14,798 nt of DNA from Candidatus Hermodarchaeum yapensis (GTDB taxonomy: Archaea > Asgardarchaeota > Hermodarchaeia > Hermodarchaeales > Hermodarchaeaceae). This document shows, piece by piece, positions 1-11,540 of the stretch (the first letter of the stretch is position 1; each line of letters opens with the position of its first letter). Location of the stretch: contig JAEOSK010000048.1 in the NCBI GenBank assembly GCA_016840405.1, positions 1 to 14,798 of the forward strand. Reading direction: 5' to 3'. The translations under genes were made by a program, and so were the position numbers. Under the pieces are notes generated by a model. It ran no database searches. It saw only the letters and a list, made by a program, of their open reading frames with translations, and had not been told where the DNA came from.

Positions 1-45
1 GACCGACGCCTTTTTACTCACAACACCAAGCCTTACTGAAATTTT
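1..45 (+). repeat. Cassette-boundary site 1 (left arm type A, right arm type X); probably clipped by the window start
   Basis: GACCGACGCCTTTT-TACTCACA-ACACCAAGCCTTACTGAAATTTT, core at 15-22. Bases 1-22 match 2821-2842 at 21/22; right arm matches site 5 at 20/23. Confidence 0.9.
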
Positions 46-147
46 ATATTAAAAATCAAAAGGTTGAGATAATCGGCTAGTCCGGCCTTTTATATGACCT
101 ATGCTTTAATACCCACCGAACCAACTGTACCTGTGGAGGTCATGCGA

Positions 148-1179
148 ATGTCTTCTTCGAAGGTCTTGGGATACGCTGCAAAAGCGGTAGGACAGCCGCT
201 GGAGCCATTCACCTATAAGCCACCCAAATTGGGGAAACATGATGTTCGGGTCTCAGTCACGCATTGCGGTTTGTGCCATACCGACATCCAAGCCATTGAC
301 GACTACTACGGAATAACCGAGTTTCCCTTTGTCCCTGGTCACGAGATCGTTGGGTATGTGTCGGCTATGGGTCGTGCGGTATCCGACCTGAAGGAAGGGG
401 ACCGGGTCGGCATCGGCTGGCAAGGCCGTTCTTGCATGGACTGTGATTTCTGTTTGCAGGGCGAAGAGCAGCTCTGCATGGATATTGTCGCCTCGGGAAC
501 ATGGGTCCCATATGGCGGTTTCGCATCCTCTGTCCTTGTGGATAGCCGCTTTGCCTACCCTCTACCTGATGCCATACCCTCCGAGGTGGCAACGGTACTC
601 ATGTGCGCTGGGATTGCGGTTTTTTCCCCGCTTCAATCGTACGCAGTGCGACCTAGACAAAAAATTGGCATCATAGGCGTAGGAGGGCTGGGTCACCTTG
701 CTTTACAGTTCGCCCACGCCCTTAACTACGATGTCACTGCCATTTCCTCATCTCCAGAGAAGAAGGAGGAGGCGCTTGCCTTCGGCGCAGACCACTTCAT
801 CATTTCAGAAGACGAGACTAGCCTACGGCAGGCTATGTTCAGCTTCGACCTGTTGCTATGCACCACCTCTGCCAAAATCAACTGGGAGGCGCTATTGAAC
901 ATCTTGAAGAAAAATGGGAGGCTAGTCCTTGTTGGCTTCCCAGATTTGGCGTTCAATTCAACTGACCTCGTAGCACATCAATTGTCAATCACCGGTTCCT
1001 TCCTTGGCAATCGGACCACCATGCGGGAGATGCTCGCGTTCGCACAGGAACATGGCATCGTGCCCAAGGTGGAGTTGATGCCCATGACGAGGGTAAACGA
1101 AGCAATTCAGAAGGTCAGAGAGAACAAGGCACGCTACCGTATCGTCTTAGTCAACGATACAGTCGAAGTGGAAGTCTAG
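148..1179 (+). CDS. Zinc-dependent NAD(P)-dependent alcohol dehydrogenase / aldehyde reductase (MDR superfamily, cinnamyl-alcohol dehydrogenase-like)
   Basis: Catalytic Zn motifs CGLCHTD, GHEIVG and MCAG; structural Zn CMDCDFC-x7-C; Rossmann GVGGLG followed by ISSSPEK (NADP-type). ORF track starts at 94, but GGAGGT at 135-140 favours ATG 148. Stop TAG 1177-1179 abuts site 2. Confidence 0.92.
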   Translation: MSSSKVLGYAAKAVGQPLEPFTYKPPKLGKHDVRVSVTHCGLCHTDIQAIDDYYGITEFPFVPGHEIVGYVSAMGRAVSDLKEGDRVGIGWQGRSCMDCDFCLQGEEQLCMDIVASGTWVPYGGFASSVLVDSRFAYPLPDAIPSEVATVLMCAGIAVFSPLQSYAVRPRQKIGIIGVGGLGHLALQFAHALNYDVTAISSSPEKKEEALAFGADHFIISEDETSLRQAMFSFDLLLCTTSAKINWEALLNILKKNGRLVLVGFPDLAFNSTDLVAHQLSITGSFLGNRTTMREMLAFAQEHGIVPKVELMPMTRVNEAIQKVRENKARYRIVLVNDTVEVEV

Positions 1180-1226
1180 ACATCCGATACGCTTTTACTC
1201 ACAAACCCAAGGCTTACTGAACTTTG
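1179..1226 (+). repeat. Cassette-boundary site 2 (left arm B, right arm X)
   Basis: GACATCCGATACGCTTT-TACTCACA-AACCCAAGGCTTACTGAACTTTG, core at 1196-1203; 43/48 identical to site 5. Confidence 0.92.
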
Positions 1227-1329
1227 TTGCCTTGAAAGGAAATATCATTTGAAGACGCATATTTCTGATTGTGTACATCTGTAACTATGTAGGCAAAAAT
1301 CCATAAACACCGAATCATCTACAGCTTGC

Positions 1330-1878
1330 ATGCAATTCTATCCTCAAAATGCAGTTGTTCCAAAAGAACTGCGAACGGAGGAATTCCATATACGTCCTCT
1401 TAGAGTGAGTGATGCAGAGATTGACTATGCAGCAGTGATGGATAGTAAATCCATGCTACGGATAATGAGTCAGAGTACATGGCCATCAGATGATTTCACC
1501 TTAGAGATGAATAGAAAAGATCTAGAGGAACATGAACAAGAACACGATGAACGCATTGCATTCACCTACACGGTTCTGGATCCAACCAAACGCATTTGCT
1601 TAGGATGTGTATATATCCGGCACTTGAAGGAAGGCCCGATGAAAGGCGACCATGCGGCTGAGCTTCGTTTTTGGATCCGTCAGCCGTACTTAGATCAAGA
1701 TTTAGATAAACTGCTGTTGAAGCACCTAATTGCCTGGTTCAAAAACGACTGGGCCTTTTCACATGTTATCCTCAGTATTGCTGATGAGGATAAAAGACAG
1801 GTTCAGCTTGCAACCGAGTTGGGTCTTCACCTCGTCCATGCATACGGAAACAAATGGTCAGAATTTCTCATCAAATGA
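1330..1878 (+). CDS. GNAT-family (RimJ/RimL-like) N-acetyltransferase
   Basis: 182-aa ORF with LRTEEFHIRPL..SDAE.DY start, FTYTVL...CLGCVYI beta-strands and A-E-L-R-F-W, typical of the RimJ/RimL-type GNAT fold. Confidence 0.7.
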   Translation: MQFYPQNAVVPKELRTEEFHIRPLRVSDAEIDYAAVMDSKSMLRIMSQSTWPSDDFTLEMNRKDLEEHEQEHDERIAFTYTVLDPTKRICLGCVYIRHLKEGPMKGDHAAELRFWIRQPYLDQDLDKLLLKHLIAWFKNDWAFSHVILSIADEDKRQVQLATELGLHLVHAYGNKWSEFLIK

Positions 1879-1909
1879 CTCTACCTTAACATAACGTGAC
1901 ATGAGAATG

Positions 1910-1960
1910 AATATCCGATATGCTTTTACTCACAAAATCACGCCACACTCACATTTTGTG
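1910..1960 (+). repeat. Cassette-boundary site 3 (left arm B, right arm Y)
   Basis: AATATCCGATATGCTTT-TACTCACA-AAATCACGCCACACTCACATTTTGTG, core at 1927-1934; second ACTCACA at 1947-1953. Confidence 0.9.
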
Positions 1961-2090
1961 GTGAACACGGCAATAGTCACAAACACTACGAAAATTCGTT
2001 TAGTTCCACGAAAACTAGAAACTAACACCCAGAACTTACTTCAAACCTTCTTCGACTGCGCTTCCTGGACAGGTTCCGCTGAAAATGGGT

Positions 2091-2669
2091 TTATCGAATG
2101 ATGTCCCCAAACTCTTCAAAGGGCATACTCGCCAGTAAAGGCATCAGCTTACCAAATCCTTCAAGAATTTCGGGATCTTCATGGAACTTCTCATGGGCTT
2201 CTTTGCTCGTCCAATAGGTGAGCATTACATATTTCGTGGGTTTGATGGGGACCTCTTTGTATGGTCCTTGAACCATGCTCCCTCCAAACGAGATTGATGA
2301 GATTCGAAAAATCTTCGATCCCAAGAATCCCTTTTTCTCCACGGTTTTATGACACAGGTCACCGGCTAAATCCGTAAAAGCTTGCTCTTTGCCTGGTTTC
2401 ACAGTCAAATAATTAAGCGCACAAACTACACTACGCTGGATCATCTCATACTCCCCATGTTTTGACATTGGGATTATTTCAGCAGTTATCCCGTTTTTCT
2501 GAAGGTAATCCTTCGCTATCCTCGAACGAAATCCAGTATTACAAAAGAGTTCGATGGACTGATCACGAAAGAAATCCAAATAATATTCGAGATCCTGTAA
2601 CGGGAAGTTGTATGCTCCTTTAATGTGTTCTTTGATGAACTCTTCACGAGAACGGACATCAACAATCAT
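2091..2669 (-). CDS. Rhodanese domain fused to a dimeric alpha+beta barrel (ABM / sulfur oxygenase reductase-like) domain
   Basis: N-terminal IVDVRS..EF...HIKGA and active-site loop FCNTGFRS; C-terminal VKPGKEQAF...KGFLG...YVMLTYW.S.EAHEKFH. Likely start is ATG 2669 (GGTG upstream) rather than TTG 2699. Confidence 0.8.
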   Translation of the reverse strand: MIVDVRSREEFIKEHIKGAYNFPLQDLEYYLDFFRDQSIELFCNTGFRSRIAKDYLQKNGITAEIIPMSKHGEYEMIQRSVVCALNYLTVKPGKEQAFTDLAGDLCHKTVEKKGFLGSKIFRISSISFGGSMVQGPYKEVPIKPTKYVMLTYWTSKEAHEKFHEDPEILEGFGKLMPLLASMPFEEFGDIIR

Positions 2670-2817
2670 ATCAAACACCGAAAAGAGAACCGCTGTCAAA
2701 TTATTTAGGCTTATTTATATTGCTTGCTAAGTAAGCCCGTTTAAAAAACATATAAATTAATCAATCTCTGGAAGAGAAGCCCCGATAGTGAGTAGGACCA
2801 TCATAGAAGATTGGTTG

Positions 2818-2865
2818 TACGACCGACGCCTGTTTACTCACAGAATCACGCAGCGCTCACATTAT
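2818..2865 (+). repeat. Cassette-boundary site 4 (left arm A, right arm Y)
   Basis: TACGACCGACGCCTGTT-TACTCACA-GAATCACGCAGCGCTCACATTAT, core at 2835-2842; right arm matches site 3 at 18/23. Confidence 0.9.
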
Positions 2866-3075
2866 CTGATTTAGGGAAAGCATCATAAGAGTGAGAAAGG
2901 TGTGAAAACCACATCCTCAAATTACTGTCGAATGCCCTCCTTTTCAACTCCACCCACACAAGGAATTATTTGGCGAACGGAATATTTGTAACTCTTTTAC
3001 TCTTACAGCTGATTAGAATTAACTGTTCAATTCCTTAGGAAATCAAGATTATTCTGAATAATAAAAAACCTTTCG

Positions 3076-3097
3076 AAAAAAAATAAAATAAAAAAAA
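3076..3097 (-). terminator. Possible oligo-T archaeal terminator for the minus-strand small ORFs
   Basis: A-run on the + strand (T-run on -) about 90 bp downstream of the 3185 stop codon. Confidence 0.35.
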
Positions 3098-3184
3098 TAT
3101 ACTAGGTAGTTACAAACTGGAGACAAAGGAGGCAAATCTCGGAACGCGCCTTTCAGTGATTGACCTGAATCAGCTAGGATCTAG

Positions 3185-3385
3185 CTAGCTAGTTAAATAG
3201 TATCTTCCGTCCTTTGTTGCAACGACACCAGAAGGTATGATTGTGTTGGCACTCATTTTCAGCCACTTTTCTTCAAGTTTGAGTTCTTTGGGTGTTTTAG
3301 CAGTCTCTTCAGAAGTGGCTTCCGCTTCTTTGAGTGTCTTTTTAGTACGCTCCAATACCCATGCTGCATAAGCTGCTACTGCCAA
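3185..3385 (-). CDS. Small hypothetical protein (~66 aa)
   Basis: Strong RBS AGGAGGTGA (complement of 3391-3399) 5 nt upstream of TTG 3385; follows 3430-3627 on the same strand. Confidence 0.65.
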   Translation of the reverse strand: MAVAAYAAWVLERTKKTLKEAEATSEETAKTPKELKLEEKWLKMSANTIIPSGVVATKDGRYYLTS

Positions 3386-3429
3386 TTGAGTCACCTCCTT
3401 ATCCTGTCAATCTATTTATCAGTTTTTAG

Positions 3430-3627
3430 CTACGAAGGTTCCCGGCTACTCCGTATCATAATTGCAGAAGTCAATATGACAATCAGCATCATACCAAATA
3501 TCGCCACAAGGCTTCCGATGCCGAAGGTTCGTTCAGCAAAAATATGACCTTCTAGAGCTATCCCCATACCTACAGTAATGAAAAACCCTGCCACTACGAG
3601 CCATACATATTCCCATTTTCTCATCAT
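3430..3627 (-). CDS. Small membrane protein with two predicted TM helices
   Basis: Two hydrophobic stretches (YVWLVVAGFFITVGMGIAL; FGIGSLVAIFGMMLIVILTSAIMI); GAGGT upstream. Confidence 0.6.
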   Translation of the reverse strand: MMRKWEYVWLVVAGFFITVGMGIALEGHIFAERTFGIGSLVAIFGMMLIVILTSAIMIRSSREPS

Positions 3628-3898
3628 GAAAACCTCAACTAAGTTGCTCTAAACATTCTAGGTATGACAGATGACTATAAACAACTGTGGATTAATTCTC
3701 CATAGCCTTCATATGTCGTGCTACGAAAAATTCATTTTCAGAAAAGTTAGGAACTGGGTGTTCAGATTACAAATGGTTAATCTGTTGTACAAGACCGATT
3801 TGTCCAAGAAGAAGCTGGGCGAAATGTGCCACTAGAGGGAGGATTAGGAATTGCTTCGATCGGTTTTTTGGTTTGGATTCGAAGAAGTAGGTGATTAA

Positions 3899-4063
3899 TT
3901 AATAATACTGGGTTAAAGCTGCTTTTCCTTTCTCTGTGGTTTTGAATTCGAAAATCCCCGCTGTAGGTTGATCATTCGATATTGGACTTGGACCTTTAAC
4001 GAATATCGACATTTCAATAATCCCAACACCCATAACATTGGAAGTACCTTGGGGCGTAATCAT
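3899..4063 (-). CDS. Possible 54-aa ORF or gene remnant (below the ORF-track cutoff)
   Basis: Hand translation MITPQGTSNVMGVGIIEMSIFVKGPSPISNDQPTAGIFEFKTTEKGKAALTQYY; same strand as its neighbours; no recognised homology. Confidence 0.25.
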   Translation of the reverse strand: MITPQGTSNVMGVGIIEMSIFVKGPSPISNDQPTAGIFEFKTTEKGKAALTQYY

Positions 4064-4126
4064 TCCTCTATCAGCATTCTGTGGAATCTGCCTTCCACTT
4101 GATCAATTACTTCAAACCAAATAATG

Positions 4127-4174
4127 GACATCCGATATGCTTTTACTCACAAATCCAAGCCTTACTGAAGTTTT
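4127..4174 (+). repeat. Cassette-boundary site 5 (left arm B, right arm X)
   Basis: GACATCCGATATGCTTT-TACTCACA-AATCCAAGCCTTACTGAAGTTTT, core at 4144-4151. Confidence 0.92.
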
Positions 4175-4312
4175 TTCTCGACGTAGATATAGCGCGTTTT
4201 TGTAATGCATAATTACTAACTTTTATCTTTATCACCGAATAGATACATCCAATCCAATTATATACTTAAATATTTGAATAGATTAATACATCACACATCT
4301 CGAGGTTTATCG

Positions 4313-5401
4313 ATGACTAGCGAAAGTGAGTCTGGTTCTAGTAACTCTGATGAGGAATCTGTTCAAATGGGGCTCTTTGAGAAGTACCTTACACTCTGGA
4401 TATTATCATTTATGACCTTGGGGCTTCTATTGGGATGGCTTTTCCCCGCTTTTGCACTAACTCTTGCTGGACTTCAGTTTGCCGGGTTTTCCATTCCTAT
4501 TGCTATTTGTCTCTTCTTCATGATGTTCCCAACCCTCATCAATATTGAATATGGCGAGATCAAAAACGCTATTAAATTCCCCAAGCCGCTTGTAATCACG
4601 CTCGTGGCTAATTGGATCATCAATCCCCTCCTCGGTTTCTTCTTGGCAAGCACAATACTCGCTGCAAATCCCGGGTATGCCATTGGCATTATCCTACTTG
4701 CAGTTTCGCCGTGCACAGCAATGGTCCTGTTTTGGAATAAATTCGCGAAAGGGAACATCAATTTAGGCTTGGTCATCACCTCGATCAACTCGCTCTTGAT
4801 TCTGCTTCTCTATGCACCTCTTGCATCAGTTTTCATTGGGTTTTATGTCACGGTCCCCTTCATCACTCTCCTTTTCGGAACCATGGTTTTCCTTGTTCTT
4901 CCCCTCGTCACCGGTGTCATAGTGAAACGCCACGTCTACAACACCAGAGGTCAAAAATGGTTCGCCAGTAACTTCAAACCTGTTCTGGATAAAATTGCCA
5001 TCGTTGCGCTCCTCCTCACTCTTGTTGTTCTCTTCTCATTTCAAGGTCAAGTTATTCTCACGCAACCTCTCGATGTTCTCTGGATCAGCAGTGTTCTTCT
5101 CCTCAACTATATAATCATGTTTACCTCTGTGTTTCTCGTCTGTTACAAACTCGATTTTTCCTACAAACAAACTGTTACCGCCACGATTATCGCAAGCAGC
5201 TCTCACTTTGAAATTGCGATTGCCACAGCAATTCTTCTTTTTGGACCCGGATCCGCTGCCGCGTTCGCAACAGTGATTGGTGTCCTCTGGGAAGTTCCCC
5301 TAATGGTCGCCTTCCTCAAACTCGCCCTCCGCCTTAGACCGAAACTCTGGTCTGAATCCACTAACACGACAATCAAATCATCTGCATCTGAATTAAACTA
5401 G
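4313..5401 (+). CDS. acr3: Acr3-family arsenite efflux transporter
   Basis: MGLFEKYLTLWI start, LVANW, SPCTAMV (conserved Cys), SSHFEIAIA, GVLWEVP and about 10 hydrophobic segments. ATG 4313 has GAGGT upstream. Confidence 0.92.
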   Translation: MTSESESGSSNSDEESVQMGLFEKYLTLWILSFMTLGLLLGWLFPAFALTLAGLQFAGFSIPIAICLFFMMFPTLINIEYGEIKNAIKFPKPLVITLVANWIINPLLGFFLASTILAANPGYAIGIILLAVSPCTAMVLFWNKFAKGNINLGLVITSINSLLILLLYAPLASVFIGFYVTVPFITLLFGTMVFLVLPLVTGVIVKRHVYNTRGQKWFASNFKPVLDKIAIVALLLTLVVLFSFQGQVILTQPLDVLWISSVLLLNYIIMFTSVFLVCYKLDFSYKQTVTATIIASSSHFEIAIATAILLFGPGSAAAFATVIGVLWEVPLMVAFLKLALRLRPKLWSESTNTTIKSSASELN

Positions 5402-5446
5402 AAAAACAGGTCACAATAGAACCAAAGTAAATCAAAAGCAGCCATC

Positions 5447-5806
5447 TTATTCAGTTAAGAGATCTTGAACCTGATTCGCCATTTGCTTAACGAGGTCAGG
5501 ATTTGCCTGATAGTGATTAAATCGTCCTTTTCTCCGTCGCCGTAATAGCCCTGCTCGCGCCAGTATATTCAAATGATGTGAAATGGCAGGCTGACTCAAC
5601 TCACTTACACCAACCAGCTTGCATACGCAAACTTCTTTAGTCCCAATCGCTACAAATAATTTCAACCGTTGTGGGTGAGAAAGGGCTTTCGTCAAAGTCA
5701 CAATCGCATTTACCTGTTTTTCACCAGACTCAGATTCTAAATCTAACAACCGGCCAAGAAGTCGTTCTACATCCTCTCCTGATTTCTCTTCACATTTTTC
5801 CGACAT
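5447..5806 (-). CDS. arsR: ArsR/SmtB-family metal-responsive repressor
   Basis: KALSHPQRLK, EVCVCKL (ELCVCDL-type As(III)-binding box), LSQPAISHHL..L..AGL HTH and wing RRKGRFNHY; adjacent to acr3. Confidence 0.88.
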   Translation of the reverse strand: MSEKCEEKSGEDVERLLGRLLDLESESGEKQVNAIVTLTKALSHPQRLKLFVAIGTKEVCVCKLVGVSELSQPAISHHLNILARAGLLRRRRKGRFNHYQANPDLVKQMANQVQDLLTE

Positions 5807-5854
5807 TCTTTTTACCCCTATCTGATTCTAATTTAATCTGCAACTCATCCACAT

Positions 5855-5872
5855 ATTTAAATGCGTCTAAAT
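5855..5872. promoter_or_regulatory. Candidate ArsR operator / promoter upstream of arsR
   Basis: Imperfect inverted repeat ATTTAAA-TGCG-TCTAAAT about 50 bp upstream of the arsR start. The context is AT-rich, so support is weak. Confidence 0.3.
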
Positions 5873-5956
5873 TAATATCTAGAAGAGCATTACAGATATT
5901 TCAAGAAATGAATAGTGAATCATAAGTTTCGTATAACCAACGCCTTAATATTCACT

Positions 5957-6046
5957 AAAGATGAGTATGCCCTAAAAGTTCGTTTATTTTATTCGTTATT
6001 CTATTATGTTAAGTTGTGAGTGTAAAAGATTTAATACTCACAAAAT
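5957..6046 (+). repeat. 90-bp direct repeat copy 1, ending in site 6 (left arm C)
   Basis: Ungapped 74/90 match to 6387-6476; core TACTCACA at 6035-6042; followed by TAAGCCT, resembling right arm X. Confidence 0.9.
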
Positions 6047-6109
6047 TAAGCCTGAAACCCAATTAGTTTTAGCAAATGGTGAATATTTGTAGAAATCAGT
6101 GGGAATCAT

Positions 6110-6343
6110 ATGCGTAAGGTCTTGGCAAAGATTACCCTCATTATTTCACCGATTTTCATAGCCATTCTCGTGCTGGATTGGTTTGGTTTAATTCAAGGTG
6201 GATGGCTCTTCAGAAATCCGTTTTTATTCTGGATTAACGATACTTTCCTTCTGGTCTTTTATTCTATAGTGACTCTAATTTTAATAGGGGTAAGCATTAT
6301 CACCCTACAGGAACCTGAGCCAACAAAGAGCAAAGATAATTAG
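6110..6343 (+). CDS. Small membrane protein (77 aa, 2 TM)
   Basis: Two hydrophobic helices and a charged tail; sole ORF between the two 90-bp repeats. Confidence 0.6.
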   Translation: MRKVLAKITLIISPIFIAILVLDWFGLIQGGWLFRNPFLFWINDTFLLVFYSIVTLILIGVSIITLQEPEPTKSKDN

Positions 6344-6386
6344 ACAGCGATTTTAGGATGTAGGTTTCCTAAAGTTTATATGTACA

Positions 6387-6484
6387 AAAGATGAGTATTC
6401 CCTAAGCGTTTGTTTATTTTAATCGTTTTCTCGCTATGTTAATTTGTGTATGTAAAAGATTTTTTACTCACAAAATGTGAGTAA
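6387..6484 (+). repeat. 90-bp direct repeat copy 2 plus terminal palindromic site 7
   Basis: Core at 6465-6472; perfect inverted repeat TTACTCACA-AAA-TGTGAGTAA at 6464-6484. Confidence 0.9.
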
Positions 6485-6491
6485 TTAGACT

Positions 6492-7439
6492 ATGCCAATT
6501 CCTACACACCCCTTTCAAGAGGAACTCATCCAAGCCGTGAAACGGGTCACACCAAGTGTGGTTAGCGTAAGTACTCTTGCGTTAATGCGGAACTTCTATC
6601 GTGTTCACCCAGTGGGCGGGATGGGCTCGGGTGTTGTCTTGGATAATCATAATCACATTGTTACCAATCGTCATGTGGTGGCTAAAGCTCAGAGAATCTC
6701 TGTGGCTGATACAGAGGGGGGACGCCACGATGCTACATTGCTTGGGGGGGATCAACTCATTGACATTGCTGTCCTCAAAGTAGAAGAGGGCAATCTGATT
6801 CCAGCGAAACTTGGTGATTCTGATGAGTTAGAAGTGGGGCAGCTGACCATTGCTGTGGGCAATCCGTACGGATTCATTCTTGGTGGACCTACAGTAACCA
6901 CGGGGGTTATCAGTGCGGTGCAACGGCAGATTCAGGCCAGAAACATTGTGTTGGAGAAGTTGATTCAAACAGATGCGGCGATTAATCCAGGGAATAGTGG
7001 GGGACCGTTGTGTGATATTGATGGGAATGTTATCGGGATCAATACGGCGATGTTACCGTGGGCGCAGGGGATTGGGTTTGCAATTCCCATTAACACGGTG
7101 AAAGAAGTTGCCGAGGAAATCATTGAGTTTGGTCGTGTCAGGCGGGCGTATATGGGGTTTATGGGTGTGGGATTGAATCCACAAATTGCTCGAACCTACA
7201 AGCTACCTGTGAAAGAAGGCGTCTTAATTGCCCAAGTGGTGGATGGAAGTCCAGCGGCACGAGCAGGATTACAAGAAGGCGATGTGATAGTGGCATTTGA
7301 TGGTGAAGCCATTCGGTCGATGGGTGAAATCCAAGAGCAGCTTAGGAAACGGACGGCGGGGAGCCTGTTAGAGGTTACGGTGGCTCGGGGTCAGCGTCGG
7401 CGGGGGATGTCGCTTATTCTGGGGGAGGTTCCAGCGTAA
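6492..7439 (+). CDS. htrA: HtrA/DegP-family trypsin-like serine protease with one PDZ domain
   Basis: GMGSGVV, catalytic triad TNRHVV / DIAVLK / IQTDAAINPGNSGGPL, GIGFAIP, PDZ GSPAARAGLQEGDVI. Confidence 0.95.
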   Translation: MPIPTHPFQEELIQAVKRVTPSVVSVSTLALMRNFYRVHPVGGMGSGVVLDNHNHIVTNRHVVAKAQRISVADTEGGRHDATLLGGDQLIDIAVLKVEEGNLIPAKLGDSDELEVGQLTIAVGNPYGFILGGPTVTTGVISAVQRQIQARNIVLEKLIQTDAAINPGNSGGPLCDIDGNVIGINTAMLPWAQGIGFAIPINTVKEVAEEIIEFGRVRRAYMGFMGVGLNPQIARTYKLPVKEGVLIAQVVDGSPAARAGLQEGDVIVAFDGEAIRSMGEIQEQLRKRTAGSLLEVTVARGQRRRGMSLILGEVPA

Positions 7440-8598
7440 CGTCTTGGGCGGTATCATAGAGTTGCCGGGTGTCGGGTTCTTTCAGTTCTTCCGGTTGGGG
7501 TTCATAGGTGGTGTTTTTGACGAAGAAGATGAGTAGGAAGAAGAAGATTATGTAAAAGAGGAATAGGGCAGAGTAAATGAGATAGACATTGGGGAAGAAG
7601 AGGGCGCTGATAATTAATTCTACACCGACTTGAAGTGAAACGAGGGCGAGTCCGACGATTAGGTATCCCGCTAGGCCTGGGAGGATATTGATGCGAGATT
7701 TGTCCCAGATTGTTGTGACCCAGGAGAGTTTAGGATCCTTTAGGTATTGAATGAGTAAAATTGCTCCGATGATGACACCGATGACCCAGACGACGAGCAT
7801 AATCAACGCTAAGATGACAAGCAGGTTGAAATCGCCCAAGCTTTCGAGGATAAGTTCTGAGAATGCAAAGGCGTTGATGAAACCATGGATGATCATGGGA
7901 AAGAGGACGTTGCGAGTGGCTACATAGGTGAAGCCGAGGAAGAGGCCGAGGGTAAATGTCGTGACGAAATGAGAGATGACAAAGCTGATACTGCCGTTGA
8001 TCACGTCGTTGGGAACGTGGATGAGGGCGAATCCTAGGCTGGAGGCGATGACCGCTGCGAAGTGCCCCATACCCCGGTGTTCGAGGGCAGGGATGAGCAT
8101 ACGGCGAAAGATGAGTTCTTCAAAAATGGCGGCACCAAAAATGACCGTTGCAAAGAGGAGGACAATATTCCAAGGGTTGACAAGATGAGCGGGAGTTAGA
8201 ATGAAACCAGTATAAGATGACTGGATGGGCATTCCAAGGGCAGTAAAGAAGAGCCAGAGAGCCAGAGCGAAGAGCATGGCCATGGTGAGTGCTAGACAGG
8301 CGATTCCGAAGGTCTTGAGGGTTCGTATAATAGTTGGTTTTTGGACCTCAACTAATTTCAAGCGAAAAAGGGGAAGCAGAAAGATGAAAATGACGAGGAT
8401 GCCAACTATTTGTCCAAAAAGATTCACTTGAAGTGAAGCGATGGTGCCATCGGGGATAAGGACGGGAATCCAGAAATTAATGAGTATTAGTCCGATTGCC
8501 CCGATTGCTAGGATGAATAATCCGATGATGAAGAGGAATGTGGGTGTTAAGAAATTGAAGATGCTTTCATCGCGTTCTTTGAAGACCAAAGGATTCAC
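7414..8598 (-). CDS. CPBP (CAAX/Rce1/Abi-type) intramembrane metalloprotease
   Basis: Motifs FEELIFRR, FALIH and HGFIN within a polytopic membrane protein; overlaps the htrA 3' end convergently by 26 bp. Confidence 0.88.
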   Translation of the reverse strand: MNPLVFKERDESIFNFLTPTFLFIIGLFILAIGAIGLILINFWIPVLIPDGTIASLQVNLFGQIVGILVIFIFLLPLFRLKLVEVQKPTIIRTLKTFGIACLALTMAMLFALALWLFFTALGMPIQSSYTGFILTPAHLVNPWNIVLLFATVIFGAAIFEELIFRRMLIPALEHRGMGHFAAVIASSLGFALIHVPNDVINGSISFVISHFVTTFTLGLFLGFTYVATRNVLFPMIIHGFINAFAFSELILESLGDFNLLVILALIMLVVWVIGVIIGAILLIQYLKDPKLSWVTTIWDKSRINILPGLAGYLIVGLALVSLQVGVELIISALFFPNVYLIYSALFLFYIIFFFLLIFFVKNTTYEPQPEELKEPDTRQLYDTAQDVTLEPPPE

Positions 8599-9813: not shown

Positions 9814-10371
9814 TTAGGAGGATTTGTCTTCAATTGCTGCGATAATTGAGGGGGCGAGAAGAAAGAAGGGGCGAATGCTATTCATGCCAGTTTTGGCACT
9901 TGTTTCGACATAGGTGAGAGCTTGCTGGCTGGCGAACTCTTGGACATCATCCTTGGGTACAATCGCGATAAGATCGGCTTTGTTTCCAACGAGAATGCGG
10001 GGGATATCACCACATTCCCGATTCACTTCATCAATCCAGAAACCCATCCGTTCGAAACTTTCGGGATTAGACTGGTCGAATACCAAGATTGCTCCACGAG
10101 CGCCCTTGTAGTATTTTTTGCGAATTGGACCAAACCGTTCTTGGCCTGCCGTGTCCCAGATGGTCATACGGAGTTTTTGGTCACCAACGGTGATATCTTG
10201 GACGAAGAAATTCACTCCGAGTGTGAGAATGTAGCTGGGATTGTACATTCCTTTGACATATCGAACAATTAAACTGGTTTTTCCAACTGCTGGATCTCCG
10301 ACTACGACTACCTTCGCGGAATATGTGTAGGAAGGCGCATCTGCACTGGAATCGCGATTGGGTGGTGTCAT
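9814..10371 (-). CDS. Rab-like small GTPase (Ras superfamily)
   Basis: G1 GDPAVGKTS, G2 TLGVNF, G3 WDTAGQERF, YYKGA, G4 NKAD, G5 ETSAK; no C-terminal Cys prenylation motif. Confidence 0.95.
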   Translation of the reverse strand: MTPPNRDSSADAPSYTYSAKVVVVGDPAVGKTSLIVRYVKGMYNPSYILTLGVNFFVQDITVGDQKLRMTIWDTAGQERFGPIRKKYYKGARGAILVFDQSNPESFERMGFWIDEVNRECGDIPRILVGNKADLIAIVPKDDVQEFASQQALTYVETSAKTGMNSIRPFFLLAPSIIAAIEDKSS

Positions 10372-11186
10372 AGTAGTTCCATCACCAGTTTTTTCGAAAG
10401 GTCGTATTCCTCTAGTCGTTCGTGTTCGGCTTTTATTATGGGGGCATAATGTTCGAAGAACAGGGTTTCATATGTTTGTCGTCGACGTGTCCGGCGAGCA
10501 ATCGCTATGAGTTCTTTCAAGATAAGCTGTAGAGTGTCCACAAGTGCAGGTATTCTTACTCGATCTGGGTTAACTTGGTCATAAGAGACTGAGCCGTGTT
10601 TGTCGACAGTGATGTTCTGGAGTGCGGGATCGGCTTTCAAGTGGGTGTGAAAAATGCGTTCAATATCGGGGTAATACATTTCTAGGGAGCGTTCGGAGAG
10701 CACCTTTTGGAGTGTGAGGTTATAGAATTGAACGTAGACATCAAGGATATCCATAACTTTGGCGGATCGGAGCGAAGCTTCTCCGGTTTCCCAGTGGGAG
10801 ATCAGGCTGTCGAGGAGTTCGTCAAAGATTCTGGCCCGTCGGGGGTCTCGTTGATATACAGGCAGATGGGTGGATACGTCTTCAAAGGTTTCTAGGAATC
10901 TTTCATGGAGCATGTCGAGGTATTCGTTGAAGCGTGAGGGATCTTCAGAGACATCAGTGATGAAGACCAACAGGATGCCGTTGTCATCGTCGACTTTGAA
11001 GAAGAACCGGAAATCCCGCATGGTGACAACGTTGACGTGTTGTTGGGTGATTTTTAGGGCGAGGAGTTCAACGCTGGCTAGGAGTCCGGAGAGGAGTGTG
11101 GGGTTGTCGGAGACTTCGACCCAGGTCCGGTGGTAGATGGGTTGTCCAGCATCCCAGGCGATGACATAGAAACTGTGAATTGCCAT
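10368..11186 (-). CDS. Longin-like domain protein with a helical C-terminal extension
   Basis: MAIHSFYVI..DAGQPIYHR (beta-beta), LLSGLLASV (helix), three strands ending ILLVFITD, then two helices: longin topology. 4-bp ATGA overlap with the GTPase gene. Confidence 0.7.
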   Translation of the reverse strand: MAIHSFYVIAWDAGQPIYHRTWVEVSDNPTLLSGLLASVELLALKITQQHVNVVTMRDFRFFFKVDDDNGILLVFITDVSEDPSRFNEYLDMLHERFLETFEDVSTHLPVYQRDPRRARIFDELLDSLISHWETGEASLRSAKVMDILDVYVQFYNLTLQKVLSERSLEMYYPDIERIFHTHLKADPALQNITVDKHGSVSYDQVNPDRVRIPALVDTLQLILKELIAIARRTRRRQTYETLFFEHYAPIIKAEHERLEEYDLSKKLVMELL

Positions 11187-11540
11187 AATCACTCTACCCG
11201 TATTTTAGAAATCCTGTCCTGAGTTTGATAGTAACGGTTACCGAAGTAATCCTAAATAAAGGGTGCCCCTCTTGCCTATGATTTTCTTGAATCCTCTTGG
11301 TTTACTTAACCGTCTAGTGAAGTCGAGTGGAGGTAGAATTCAATAATTTCATTGAATTTAATGGGTTCTTTTGGCTCCTACACCCGACAAAAATCAAAAC
11401 AGCGAGTTTAACCGTTAAAGTCGAAAACATAATAACACCATGCTTTGAAATACCAGAATACGAATCGGGTTTTTGATTCAATCGGGGAATAGAAAAACTA
11501 GTTCTCTTGATAGATAGTTTCAATCCAAAGGTGTTTCCCA

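Follow-up and report, generated by a model that had tools for sequence, protein, structure and literature searches.

A Hermodarchaeota cassette array upstream of an htrA-like gene, probably built by site-specific recombination within an 8-bp core

Results

Organization of the locus

The window, by which we mean the whole 14,798-nt stretch of Candidatus Hermodarchaeum yapensis DNA analysed here, carries seven repeat sites that separate six cassettes upstream of an htrA-like serine protease gene (Table 1). The contig end is the window start and falls within site 1. The cassettes face both directions, and their cargo, as judged by Pfam, is typical accessory enzymology; none of the three ORFs of cassette 4 scored above threshold for any Pfam family. 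The cassette 1 alcohol dehydrogenase has orthologues in the arrays of three other genomes (G007, G008 and G012), with other neighbours there, the cassette 2 acetyltransferase has orthologues in G007 and G008, and the ACR3/ArsR gene pair also forms one cassette in G012. The htrA-like protease gene next to the array is a conserved chromosomal gene, with orthologues in 10 of the 15 genomes of the genus.

Table 1. Sites, cassettes and flanking gene of the array in the window
Feature	Position	Strand	Basis
Site 1: left arm A (truncated by contig start), core TACTCACA 15-22, right arm X	1..47	+	Full left arm from contigs L091, L093
Cassette 1 cargo: zinc-type alcohol dehydrogenase	94..1179	+	Pfam ADH_N, ADH_zinc_N
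Site 2: left arm B, core 1196-1203, right arm X	1171..1228	+	Sequence; L097/L099 homology ends
Cassette 2 cargo: GNAT acetyltransferase	1330..1878	+	Pfam Acetyltransf_3
Site 3: left arm B, core 1927-1934, right arm Y, second core-like octamer 1946-1953	1903..1965	+	Sequence
Cassette 3 cargo: rhodanese + ABM monooxygenase-like protein	2091..2699	-	Pfam
Site 4: left arm A, core 2835-2842, right arm Y	2811..2867	+	Sequence
Cassette 4: three small ORFs (3185-3394, 3430-3627, 3899-4063)	2868..4119	-	ORFs
Site 5: left arm B, core 4144-4151, right arm X	4120..4178	+	Sequence; L096 breakpoint
Cassette 5 cargo: ACR3-type arsenite carrier (SBF family, +), ArsR regulator (5447-5806, -)	4274..5806	both	Pfam
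Site 6: C module copy 1 (~105 nt, non-coding, conserved), core 6035-6042	5945..6042	+	Repeat family D3
Cassette 6 cargo: 77-aa predicted membrane protein	6110..6343	+	ORF
Site 7 (anchor): C module copy 2, core 6465-6472, right arm Z	6375..6484	+	Palindrome, repeats
htrA-like serine protease (trypsin-like domain + PDZ)	6492..7439	+	Pfam

The initial annotation had described five sites sharing a core, TACTCACA. All five lie where it placed them, with cores starting at 15, 1196, 1927, 2835 and 4144, but it overlooked two more, those with cores at 6035 and 6465. Its arm assignments for sites 1 to 5 (A-X, B-X, B-Y, A-Y and B-X) were correct on recheck, and its comparisons were reproduced exactly: sites 1 and 4 agree at 21 of 22 nt through the core and at 12 of 23 beyond it, while the right arms agree at 20 of 23 positions between sites 1 and 5 and at 18 of 23 between sites 4 and 3. 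Over 14 nt, the left arms of these five sites are identical at 13-14 positions within a type and at 6-8 between types. Sites 6 and 7 share a third left-arm type, C, the conserved module of about 105 nt, of which seven copies were aligned and a third copy was found in a second array of this genome (contig C39). The right arm of site 7, about 15 nt upstream of the htrA start codon, is of a palindromic type, Z.

A joint spans about 55-60 bp in the order left arm, core and right arm. The left arm is either 22-26 bp long (types A, B, D, E and F) or the long C module; a T-run precedes the core, and the right arm, X or Y, measures about 27 bp. In both X and Y a second, weaker octamer resembling the core stands 19 nt downstream and leads into a T-run. 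A likely TATA box can be read behind the X arm of site 1. The motif TTTACTCACA occurs in six same-strand copies within the first 6.5 kb, where base composition predicts 0.009, a clustering far beyond chance; genome-wide there are 18 copies in 2.7 Mb, eight of them inside the two arrays.

Distribution of the site family

The family has at least 71 distinct members. They come from 9 of the 15 genomes of one Hermodarchaeota genus and from seven environmental contigs, and the family occurs nowhere else in everything that was searched. All sites share one orientation relative to htrA and are spaced at a median of 1181 bp. In most cases a unit amounts to one metabolic gene, spans 0.7-2 kb and has both arms intact and conserved; some units are non-coding, at 63-480 nt. 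A profile search of this genome recovered sites only in two arrays, on contigs C63 and C39, and found no dispersed copies of the kind expected of REP- or MITE-type repeats. The locus of the C39 array is empty and lacks a core in 10 other genomes of the genus, which indicates that at least one array was not founded on a pre-existing site. A different cassette array lies on contig C58 of the same genome; its core repeats read TTCGAAGAC rather than TACTCACA. The stretch at 3850-3969, in cassette 4, is 77% identical to a 120-nt stretch of C58 beside that array.

The assemblies are fragmented and the arrays sit at contig ends; none of the contigs reaches the left end of an array. In G014 and in environmental contig L094, an X arm with no good core adjoins ABC-transporter genes. 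Contigs C32 and C73, which carry homologues of cargo or flank genes of the relatives, have no sites. We found no published description of the array in the literature.

Cassette order varies by species: in this genome and G008 the carboxylesterase cassette is upstream of the alcohol dehydrogenase, in G012 and G007 downstream. Orthologous cassettes of different species are about 80-92% identical in amino-acid sequence, approximately the divergence of htrA itself, and so give no sign of recent or frequent exchange between species.

Arms assort freely and breakpoints coincide with the core

The proposal that the arms have been shuffled around the core held up in the larger set. Among the 71 distinct sites the arms do not co-segregate across the core (Fisher test of A/B against X/Y, p = 1): left types A, B, D, E and F each pair with both X and Y, and A, B and F also pair with Z. 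Arms do co-segregate with cargo. Orthologous cargo keeps its inner arms while its outer arms change, as seen for the ABM-rhodanese, SnoaL, fam9 and carboxylesterase cassettes. The ABM-rhodanese cassette retains its Y right arm and its A left arm (26 of 26 nt compared are identical), yet across relatives and samples it follows five left arms (B, E, F, C and one other) and precedes either Y or X. Three different left arms precede the SnoaL cassette, whose own X arm is constant, and the fam9 and carboxylesterase cassettes keep their trailing arms next to differing downstream neighbours. Of 36 site pairs with an orthologous left flank, seven also have the right flank in common; conversely, 25 pairs have orthologous right flanks, and in seven of these the left flank is common as well. 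The left arm follows the upstream gene, the right arm follows the downstream gene, and breakpoints lie in TACTCACA, so a cassette runs from right arm through cargo to left arm, as had been suggested from the window.

The breakpoints are narrow. Where the right flank is shared and the left arms differ, similarity ends 8-12 nt to the left of the last base of the core; where the left flank is shared and the right arms differ, it ends at the last base of the core or 3-4 nt past it. Environmental contigs give the same picture, their homology to the window stopping at 1203, 1205, 1924, 2842 and 4155, which are core edges. Contigs L097 and L099 diverge at the first two of these positions. L098 matches the window solely from core to core (1924-2842, at 95.2%) and has different neighbours on both sides, and L096 matches at 98% over 4037-4155 and then continues with a Y arm and other cargo. 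Four sediment and estuary runs yielded further core-joined combinations, namely C with the site 3 right arm, F with the site 3 right arm, and C with Y; a contig end of run X7 has an F-type left arm joined at 1926 onto the site 3 right arm, and a contig of run X5 has a C arm joined there at 1927. Breakpoints in relatives and environmental contigs thus sit in TACTCACA or a few nucleotides off, in agreement with the idea that strands are exchanged in or next to the core.

Two contigs that are 99.95% identical to the window, L091 and L093, extend the array upstream by two more sites. One joint in the assembled contigs goes back 4105 bases on the window, as would be expected equally of a circle or of a reordered linear array; the assembled contigs yielded no clear circular cassette. 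Joints from 1965 to 5948 and from 4178 to 5977, also in environmental contigs, fall outside the cores.

One intergenic repeat that was duplicated and then drifted, with no exchange, would account for the mutual similarity of the sites and nothing further. The occurrence of every arm combination, the different outer arms of orthologous cargo with their sharp breakpoints, and the discordant flanks already refute this reading, which the initial annotation had also considered unlikely and to which we give almost no credence.

Search for an enzyme

Searches by tblastn and Pfam of the window, the C39 array, 12 loci of relatives and 10 metagenome contigs detected no recombinase in or beside the arrays, and Pfam searches of cargo and flanks detected none within the cassettes. 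The two tyrosine recombinases of this genome, used as tblastn queries, had no match in 24 array loci. One of the two is a XerA equivalog (274 bits against a cut-off of 220). In three genomes its gene shares a contig with htrA and is found 16-19 kb downstream; in G012, which bears arrays, XerA is the sole match to PF00589. Host XerA is our main candidate for the enzyme. No core-like site lies beside xerA, which occupies positions 6331-7275 of contig C16 in this genome, where the only palindrome is GC-rich, directly follows the stop codon and is probably a terminator. A de novo genome-wide search for 11-6-11 palindromes as dif candidates gave 37 matches, none of them convincing or related to the core. 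A core site of a tyrosine recombinase is expected to have a second binding arm in inverted orientation; the cassette sites have none, the anchor alone being palindromic. Neither a serine recombinase (PF00239) nor an IS200-type Y1 transposase was found in this genome, which is 86% complete.

The other candidate considered was a divergent integrase on contig C53, which scores 64 bits against the cut-off of 265 of the integron-integrase model. It was dropped as the array's enzyme because C53 carries no sites of either array type.

When the DNA of sites 1-5 was folded, neither strand gave a hairpin, an attC-like fold or a structure common to the sites (z-scores of -1.8 to +1.2), and the sequences lack GTTRRRY and RYYYAAC boxes. 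Readings of the sites as C/D-box sRNAs or tRNA fragments were rejected by eye, the required boxes being missing.

It is also conceivable that each cassette is a target-specific transposon and TACTCACA its target-site duplication. Such a transposon predicts the same layout, with the core between units and the arms travelling with the cargo, and DDE transposons commonly make duplications of 8 bp, the length of the core. The two ends of a cassette, though, do not form an inverted repeat, no cassette holds a transposase, no Y1 transposase was found in the genome, and the sites form no hairpins, all of which make this explanation very unlikely.

Serial integration of viruses or plasmids at the htrA palindrome, with the integrated elements later whittled down to single genes and the sites left as scars, has a precedent in integrative elements, for which it is usual to insert in tandem at one palindromic site of the chromosome (PMC8371274). 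Close copies of a 69-aa ORF of cassette 4 are enormously abundant in the same samples, and one copy lies on C53 together with the divergent integrase gene. Against such an origin, most units are single metabolic genes with intact arms, some are short and non-coding, and none of the approximately 60 units examined holds a virus or plasmid gene or an integrase remnant. We see only a slim chance that the sites arose in this way.

The anchor site and a possible operator

The arrays terminate at the palindrome TTACTCACA-AAA-TGTGAGTAA, which is formed by the anchor core and the Z arm, has 9-3-9 geometry and lies in the promoter of the htrA-like gene. The Z arm adjoins htrA in eight genomes, and the left arm there is C, B, A or F according to species. 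Palindromes built from the core half-site also stand in front of an Hsp20-like gene, after its TATA box and before its start codon. The Hsp20-like gene adjoins a gene for a PadR-like winged-helix regulator (on contig C28 in this genome), and the whole arrangement recurs in most genomes of the genus. From these sequence contexts, the htrA palindrome looks like a putative stress-regulon operator as well.

The core might accordingly be maintained as the half-site of a transcription-factor operator, and recombination by short homology or microhomology at the conserved 8-12 bp might swap neighbours with no dedicated recombinase. The palindromes at the Hsp20-like gene favour such an explanation, as do the lack of any recombinase linked to the arrays and the divergence of the cassettes, which is about that of core genes. 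Nevertheless, a half-site has no obvious role between unrelated accessory genes in either orientation, and the arms of 22-27 bp on either side fall into conserved families whatever the cargo, which indicates that the whole joint has a function. Moreover, dozens of independent exchanges were all confined to one stretch of 8 bp, even though like-type sites have at least 50 bp of homology in common, anywhere in which a crossover would be just as possible. We consider this explanation unlikely.

Discussion

The sites are probably joints between mobile or shufflable cassettes in a chromosomal array, and the array was probably created by conservative site-specific recombination within the 8-bp core in a manner that resembles integrons or IMEX and uses other parts. 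A conservative site-specific recombinase, acting in trans, would exchange strands inside the core, so that each cassette would consist of a right arm, its cargo and a left arm, and could be excised, inserted at any other site, reordered or lost. The array would be anchored at the palindromic core and Z site in the promoter of the htrA-like gene, a palindrome that probably also serves as a stress-regulon operator. We infer that the exchange is enzyme-catalysed and proceeds via circular intermediates. It is possible, but doubtful, that host XerA is the enzyme; alternatively, the integrase of another element might act on the sites. It is tempting to go further and to propose a host-run Asgard gene-capture system that has no integrase of its own, docks at a heat-shock-type stress operator before htrA and relies on XerA or an unrecognised recombinase to move cassettes at the core, but we regard this fuller scheme as fairly improbable.

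In overall layout the array is like an integron, in that co-oriented sites separate variable accessory cassettes of one or a few genes at a fixed chromosomal locus, and cassette content and order vary among close relatives. The likeness is above all to sedentary chromosomal integrons and to the integrase-less attC clusters known as CALINs, including archaeal ones (Ghaly et al. 2022; PMC9668308); arrays with no neighbouring integrase, as here, are common (PMC9668308). It differs from integrons in having no hairpin, no GTTRRRY or RYYYAAC boxes and no IntI that we could find. The crossover also falls in the middle of the site, leaving its halves in different cassettes, whereas attC stays almost whole with one cassette. 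The cassettes here point both ways, and a likely TATA box stands behind the X arm of site 1.

IMEX, exemplified by CTXphi, TLCphi and the gonococcal island, integrate in tandem at the host dif site by means of host Xer recombinase. Their resemblance to the array lies in units that do not encode a recombinase and that follow one another head to tail from a single palindromic site in the host, in identity with the host site that is limited to one side and part of the centre, and in the presence of host XerA. Known dif sites have 11-6-11 geometry, whereas the anchor here is a 9-3-9 palindrome in a promoter; the cargo is single metabolic genes instead of phages or islands, and the candidate xerA gene is 16-19 kb away.

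Two further systems share parts of the design. Staphylococcal cassette chromosome (SCC) composite islands at rlmH are tandem units, tens of kb each, moved by Ccr serine recombinases. Like the array, they lie next to a conserved housekeeping gene, have units bounded by direct repeats of a short integration sequence and include some units free of recombinase, but the serine recombinases on which they depend were not found in this genome (86% complete), and their units are far larger. In the pdif modules of Acinetobacter plasmids, inverted canonical 28-bp XerC/XerD sites flank the module. These too are recombinase-less gene modules bounded by short sites whose half-sites recombine into hybrids, whereas all sites of an array here are direct repeats on one strand and are not dif-like.

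Arrays of this kind help to explain why the assemblies of these genomes break at array loci. Current integron finders are blind to them, and much archaeal accessory-gene traffic may therefore be hidden. If the enzyme were identified, it would form, together with the compact 8-bp core, a new recombination system and perhaps a tool.

In integrons, the SOS response couples cassette shuffling or expression to stress. If the anchor palindrome is indeed an operator, a regulator that binds the same motif could couple shuffling or expression of the cassettes to stress here as well. The array represents a second route to integron-like gene collection, one that uses a short double-stranded core and sequence-conserved arms in place of a folded attC and IntI. 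The array bears on how Asgard archaea, to which eukaryotes are more closely related than to any other known group, gain and shuffle genes, a process that is poorly understood.

Results

All five site positions claimed by the initial annotation proved exact, and a recount found every one of its identity counts between site arms correct. Two further sites follow, both with left arm C; six copies of the core TTTACTCACA lie on one strand within 6.5 kb, against 0.009 expected. The last of these sites adjoins the gene of an htrA-like protease, where an inverted copy following the core forms the palindrome TTACTCACA-AAA-TGTGAGTAA (right arm Z), about 15 nt upstream of the start codon. Cargo between the sites comprises genes for an alcohol dehydrogenase (ADH), a GNAT acetyltransferase, a rhodanese/ABM protein (minus strand), an ACR3-type arsenite carrier with its ArsR regulator and a 77-aa membrane protein, together with three small orphan ORFs (minus strand). 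Further along, the gene for a 274-aa protein with a weak longin-domain match has the gene of a Ras-family small GTPase directly downstream; such pairing is typical of Asgard archaea and fits the Asgard assignment of the window.

The window forms the first 14.8 kb of contig C63 of the host genome, G000. This is a metagenome-assembled genome of 2.7 Mb (86%-complete, 44.7% G+C), and a profile search confined its sites to the window array and a second array on contig C39. A degenerate left-arm-plus-core pattern matched in 8 of 14 other genomes of the genus and in none of 46 elsewhere in the phylum; the reversed control pattern had no match. Among about 185,000 species genomes, a core-plus-X pattern matched only records under the Asgard labels Hermodarchaeota and Promethearchaeota or listed merely as uncultured archaea, several of them contigs of the Hermodarchaeota genus, and in metagenomes it matched ten contigs. 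Across these searches, the site family is restricted to one genus of Hermodarchaeota.

Curation left 71 distinct sites, in a single orientation within each array and at a median spacing of 1181 bp (range 63-5695 bp). In their consensus, a T-run precedes ACTCACA (1.8-2.0 bits per position), which is followed by A, and the arms on either side of the core hold moderate information for about 25 nt. The left-arm types are A, B, C, D, E and F, several with small palindromes inside; the right-arm types are X, Y and Z. X and Y arms each hold another core-like octamer, weaker than the first and 19 nt after it (TACTGAAC in X, CRCTCACA in Y), and a T-run comes next. Some cassettes are gene-less, with 63-80 nt of non-coding sequence separating a Y arm from the core that follows.

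ORFs of all array loci were grouped into families by BLASTP, and 100-nt flanks were compared across all site pairs. Pairs with an orthologous left flank also had the right flank in common in only 7 of 36 cases, and those with an orthologous right flank shared the left in only 7 of 25. Where arm types differed on the non-shared side, similarity stopped 8-12 nt left of the core's last base or 0-4 nt past it. The trailing B arm of fam9 is retained whether the next cassette carries SnoaL (G014) or carboxylesterase (G013, G010); the leading X arm of the SnoaL cassette stays the same although the left arms before it are of three unrelated kinds (G012, G007, G014); and carboxylesterase keeps one trailing arm before Y and ADH (G008), X and an 835-aa gene (G011) or X and SnoaL (G013). 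Cassette order varies between species as well: in G000 and G008 carboxylesterase lies upstream of ADH, in G012 and G007 downstream.

Metagenome contigs gave the same picture with sharper edges. L098 matches the window (95.2%) over one cassette, core to core, with different arms and cargo on both sides, and three other contigs match over segments listed in the table. L091 and L093, 99.95% identical to the window, continue the array upstream by two cassettes (methyltransferase, carboxylesterase). Contigs of four public sediment/estuary runs added three new core-joined arm combinations: C with the site 3 right arm, F with the site 3 right arm, and C with a Y arm. Two contig joints in runs X1 and X6 lie away from any core; the one from 1965 to 5948 connects the end of the site 3 Y arm with the beginning of the C module and has the same depth as the main form.

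From five sites, the initial annotation had proposed that strand exchange in or next to the core shuffles the arms, each cassette running from a right arm through its cargo to a left arm. The larger set supports this. Arm types are independent across the 71 sites (A/B versus X/Y, Fisher p = 1), and orthologous cargo keeps its inner arms while its outer arms change (fam9, SnoaL, carboxylesterase, the L098 cassette). Neither outcome that would have spoken against the proposal, arms that co-segregate or orthologous cargo that keeps outer and inner arms alike, was seen. Duplication with drift as the origin of the sites is refuted.

Coordinates of array features and associated loci
Feature	Sequence	Position	Strand
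Cores of sites 1-5	window	15, 1196, 1927, 2835, 4144	
Core of site 6	window	6035	
Core of site 7 (htrA anchor)	window	6465	
C module copies	window	5945-6046; 6375-6476	
C module copy	G000:C39	~33973-34072	
Second array	G000:C39	~32.5-36.2 kb	
Duplicated ~120-nt stretch	L001 (G000:C39)	within ~6390-6510 and 7840-7990	-
69-aa orphan ORF	window	3185-3394	-
Piece resembling C58	window	3850-3969	
Counterpart of that piece	G000:C58	59023-59142	
GTPase/longin-like gene pair	window	9814-11192	-
Match to L098	window	1924-2842	
Match to L096	window	4037-4155	
Match to L097	window	720-1203	
Match to L099	window	859-1205	
Contig joints, runs X1 and X6	window	1965 to 5948; 4178 to 5977	
Gene-less unit	L037	10-110	
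Gene-less unit	L001	~8990-9080	
Gene-less unit	run X5	upstream of window position 1	
Hsp20-like palindromes	G000:C28 (L084)	~29264 (1500)	
Repeated integrase-gene end	L058 (G000:C53)	2985-3040; 4205-4260	

Discussion

Repeated precise exchange within 8 bp of otherwise different sites and the cargo-independent conservation of both arms are each a signature of conservative site-specific recombination. The direct repeats would permit excision of cassettes as circles and their re-insertion. Decay of larger integrated elements and target-specific transposition both fit the anatomy poorly; we consider each very unlikely, transposition a little more so.

By tblastn and Pfam, no recombinase gene lies in any array locus examined (window, C39, relatives' loci, metagenome contigs), and neither a serine recombinase nor a Y1 transposase was found in the 86%-complete genome. 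G000 has two tyrosine recombinases. One, on contig C16, is a XerA equivalog (274 bits against a cut-off of 220), whose orthologue shares a contig with htrA, 16-19 kb downstream, in G007, G012 and G014 and is the sole PF00589 match in G012. The other, a divergent integrase, is encoded on the small contig C53, where cassette sites are absent. The last ~50 nt of this integrase gene recur 1.2 kb away, in the manner of an att site located within such a gene or of the remnant of a second copy. C53 also opens with a 92.6% identical copy of the window's 69-aa orphan ORF. In three sediment runs the summed contig depth of sequences at least 90% identical to that ORF is 3,000-8,000, compared with ~13 for the remainder of the window. 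Contig ends reveal many different contexts on both sides, and the ORF may belong to a virus or plasmid of very high abundance.

The array position on C39 is empty and coreless in ten other genomes, and the C39 array is therefore secondary and specific to this lineage. There, a stretch after an X arm that includes the promoter region of a molybdopterin-binding-domain gene is duplicated, indicating that native promoter DNA was copied into the array there too. A window piece that itself includes TTCGAAGAAG is 77% identical to a stretch lying ~150 nt away from the final TTCGAAGAC-type site in G000's other cassette array, on C58, and the two array types may exchange material.

At htrA, the adjacent site carries the Z arm in eight genomes, behind left arm C (G000, G010, G012, G014), B (G006, G007), A (G013) or F (G003). 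Varied left arms beside a constant Z are what cassette insertion into a C|Z site predicts. The C module, a non-coding left arm of ~105 nt, is 80-92% conserved between copies and species. It contains a TATA-like box of its own and, 12 nt ahead of the core, an inverted copy of the core, TGTGAGTG. The module may represent promoter and leader of htrA, or it may encode a small RNA.

The core half-site also occurs in similar palindromes between the TATA-like box and start codon of an Hsp20-like gene (Pfam HSP20 19.7 bits, slightly below cut-off), which adjoins a divergent PadR-like winged-helix regulator gene in an arrangement that recurs in most genomes of the genus. On C28 and at orthologous loci these read AGTCACA-WWW-TGTGAGTAA, with a further half-site, and are probably a stress-regulon operator whose half-site is common to the cassette core. 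From this locus we infer that the htrA palindrome, too, would be an operator of a stress regulon. Our main rival explanation, short-homology recombination at this conserved operator half-site, would dispense with a dedicated recombinase; we consider it unlikely. A conserved palindromic operator would offer cassettes a stable place to dock, comparable to what tRNA genes provide for many integrases.

The integrons that Ghaly et al. describe from archaea are attC-based (PMC9668308), and IMEX-like elements and cassette arrays are both absent from a 2021 review of tyrosine recombinases in archaea (PMC8371274). Our full-text literature search for XerA or Hermodarchaeota together with cassettes returned nothing relevant. 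The cassette sites show no hairpin folding, no attC boxes and no inverted second arm, and the htrA anchor has a 9-3-9 geometry where Xer/dif has 11-6-11. Judged by these defining features, the array system is neither an integron nor canonical Xer/dif, though it would work like both.
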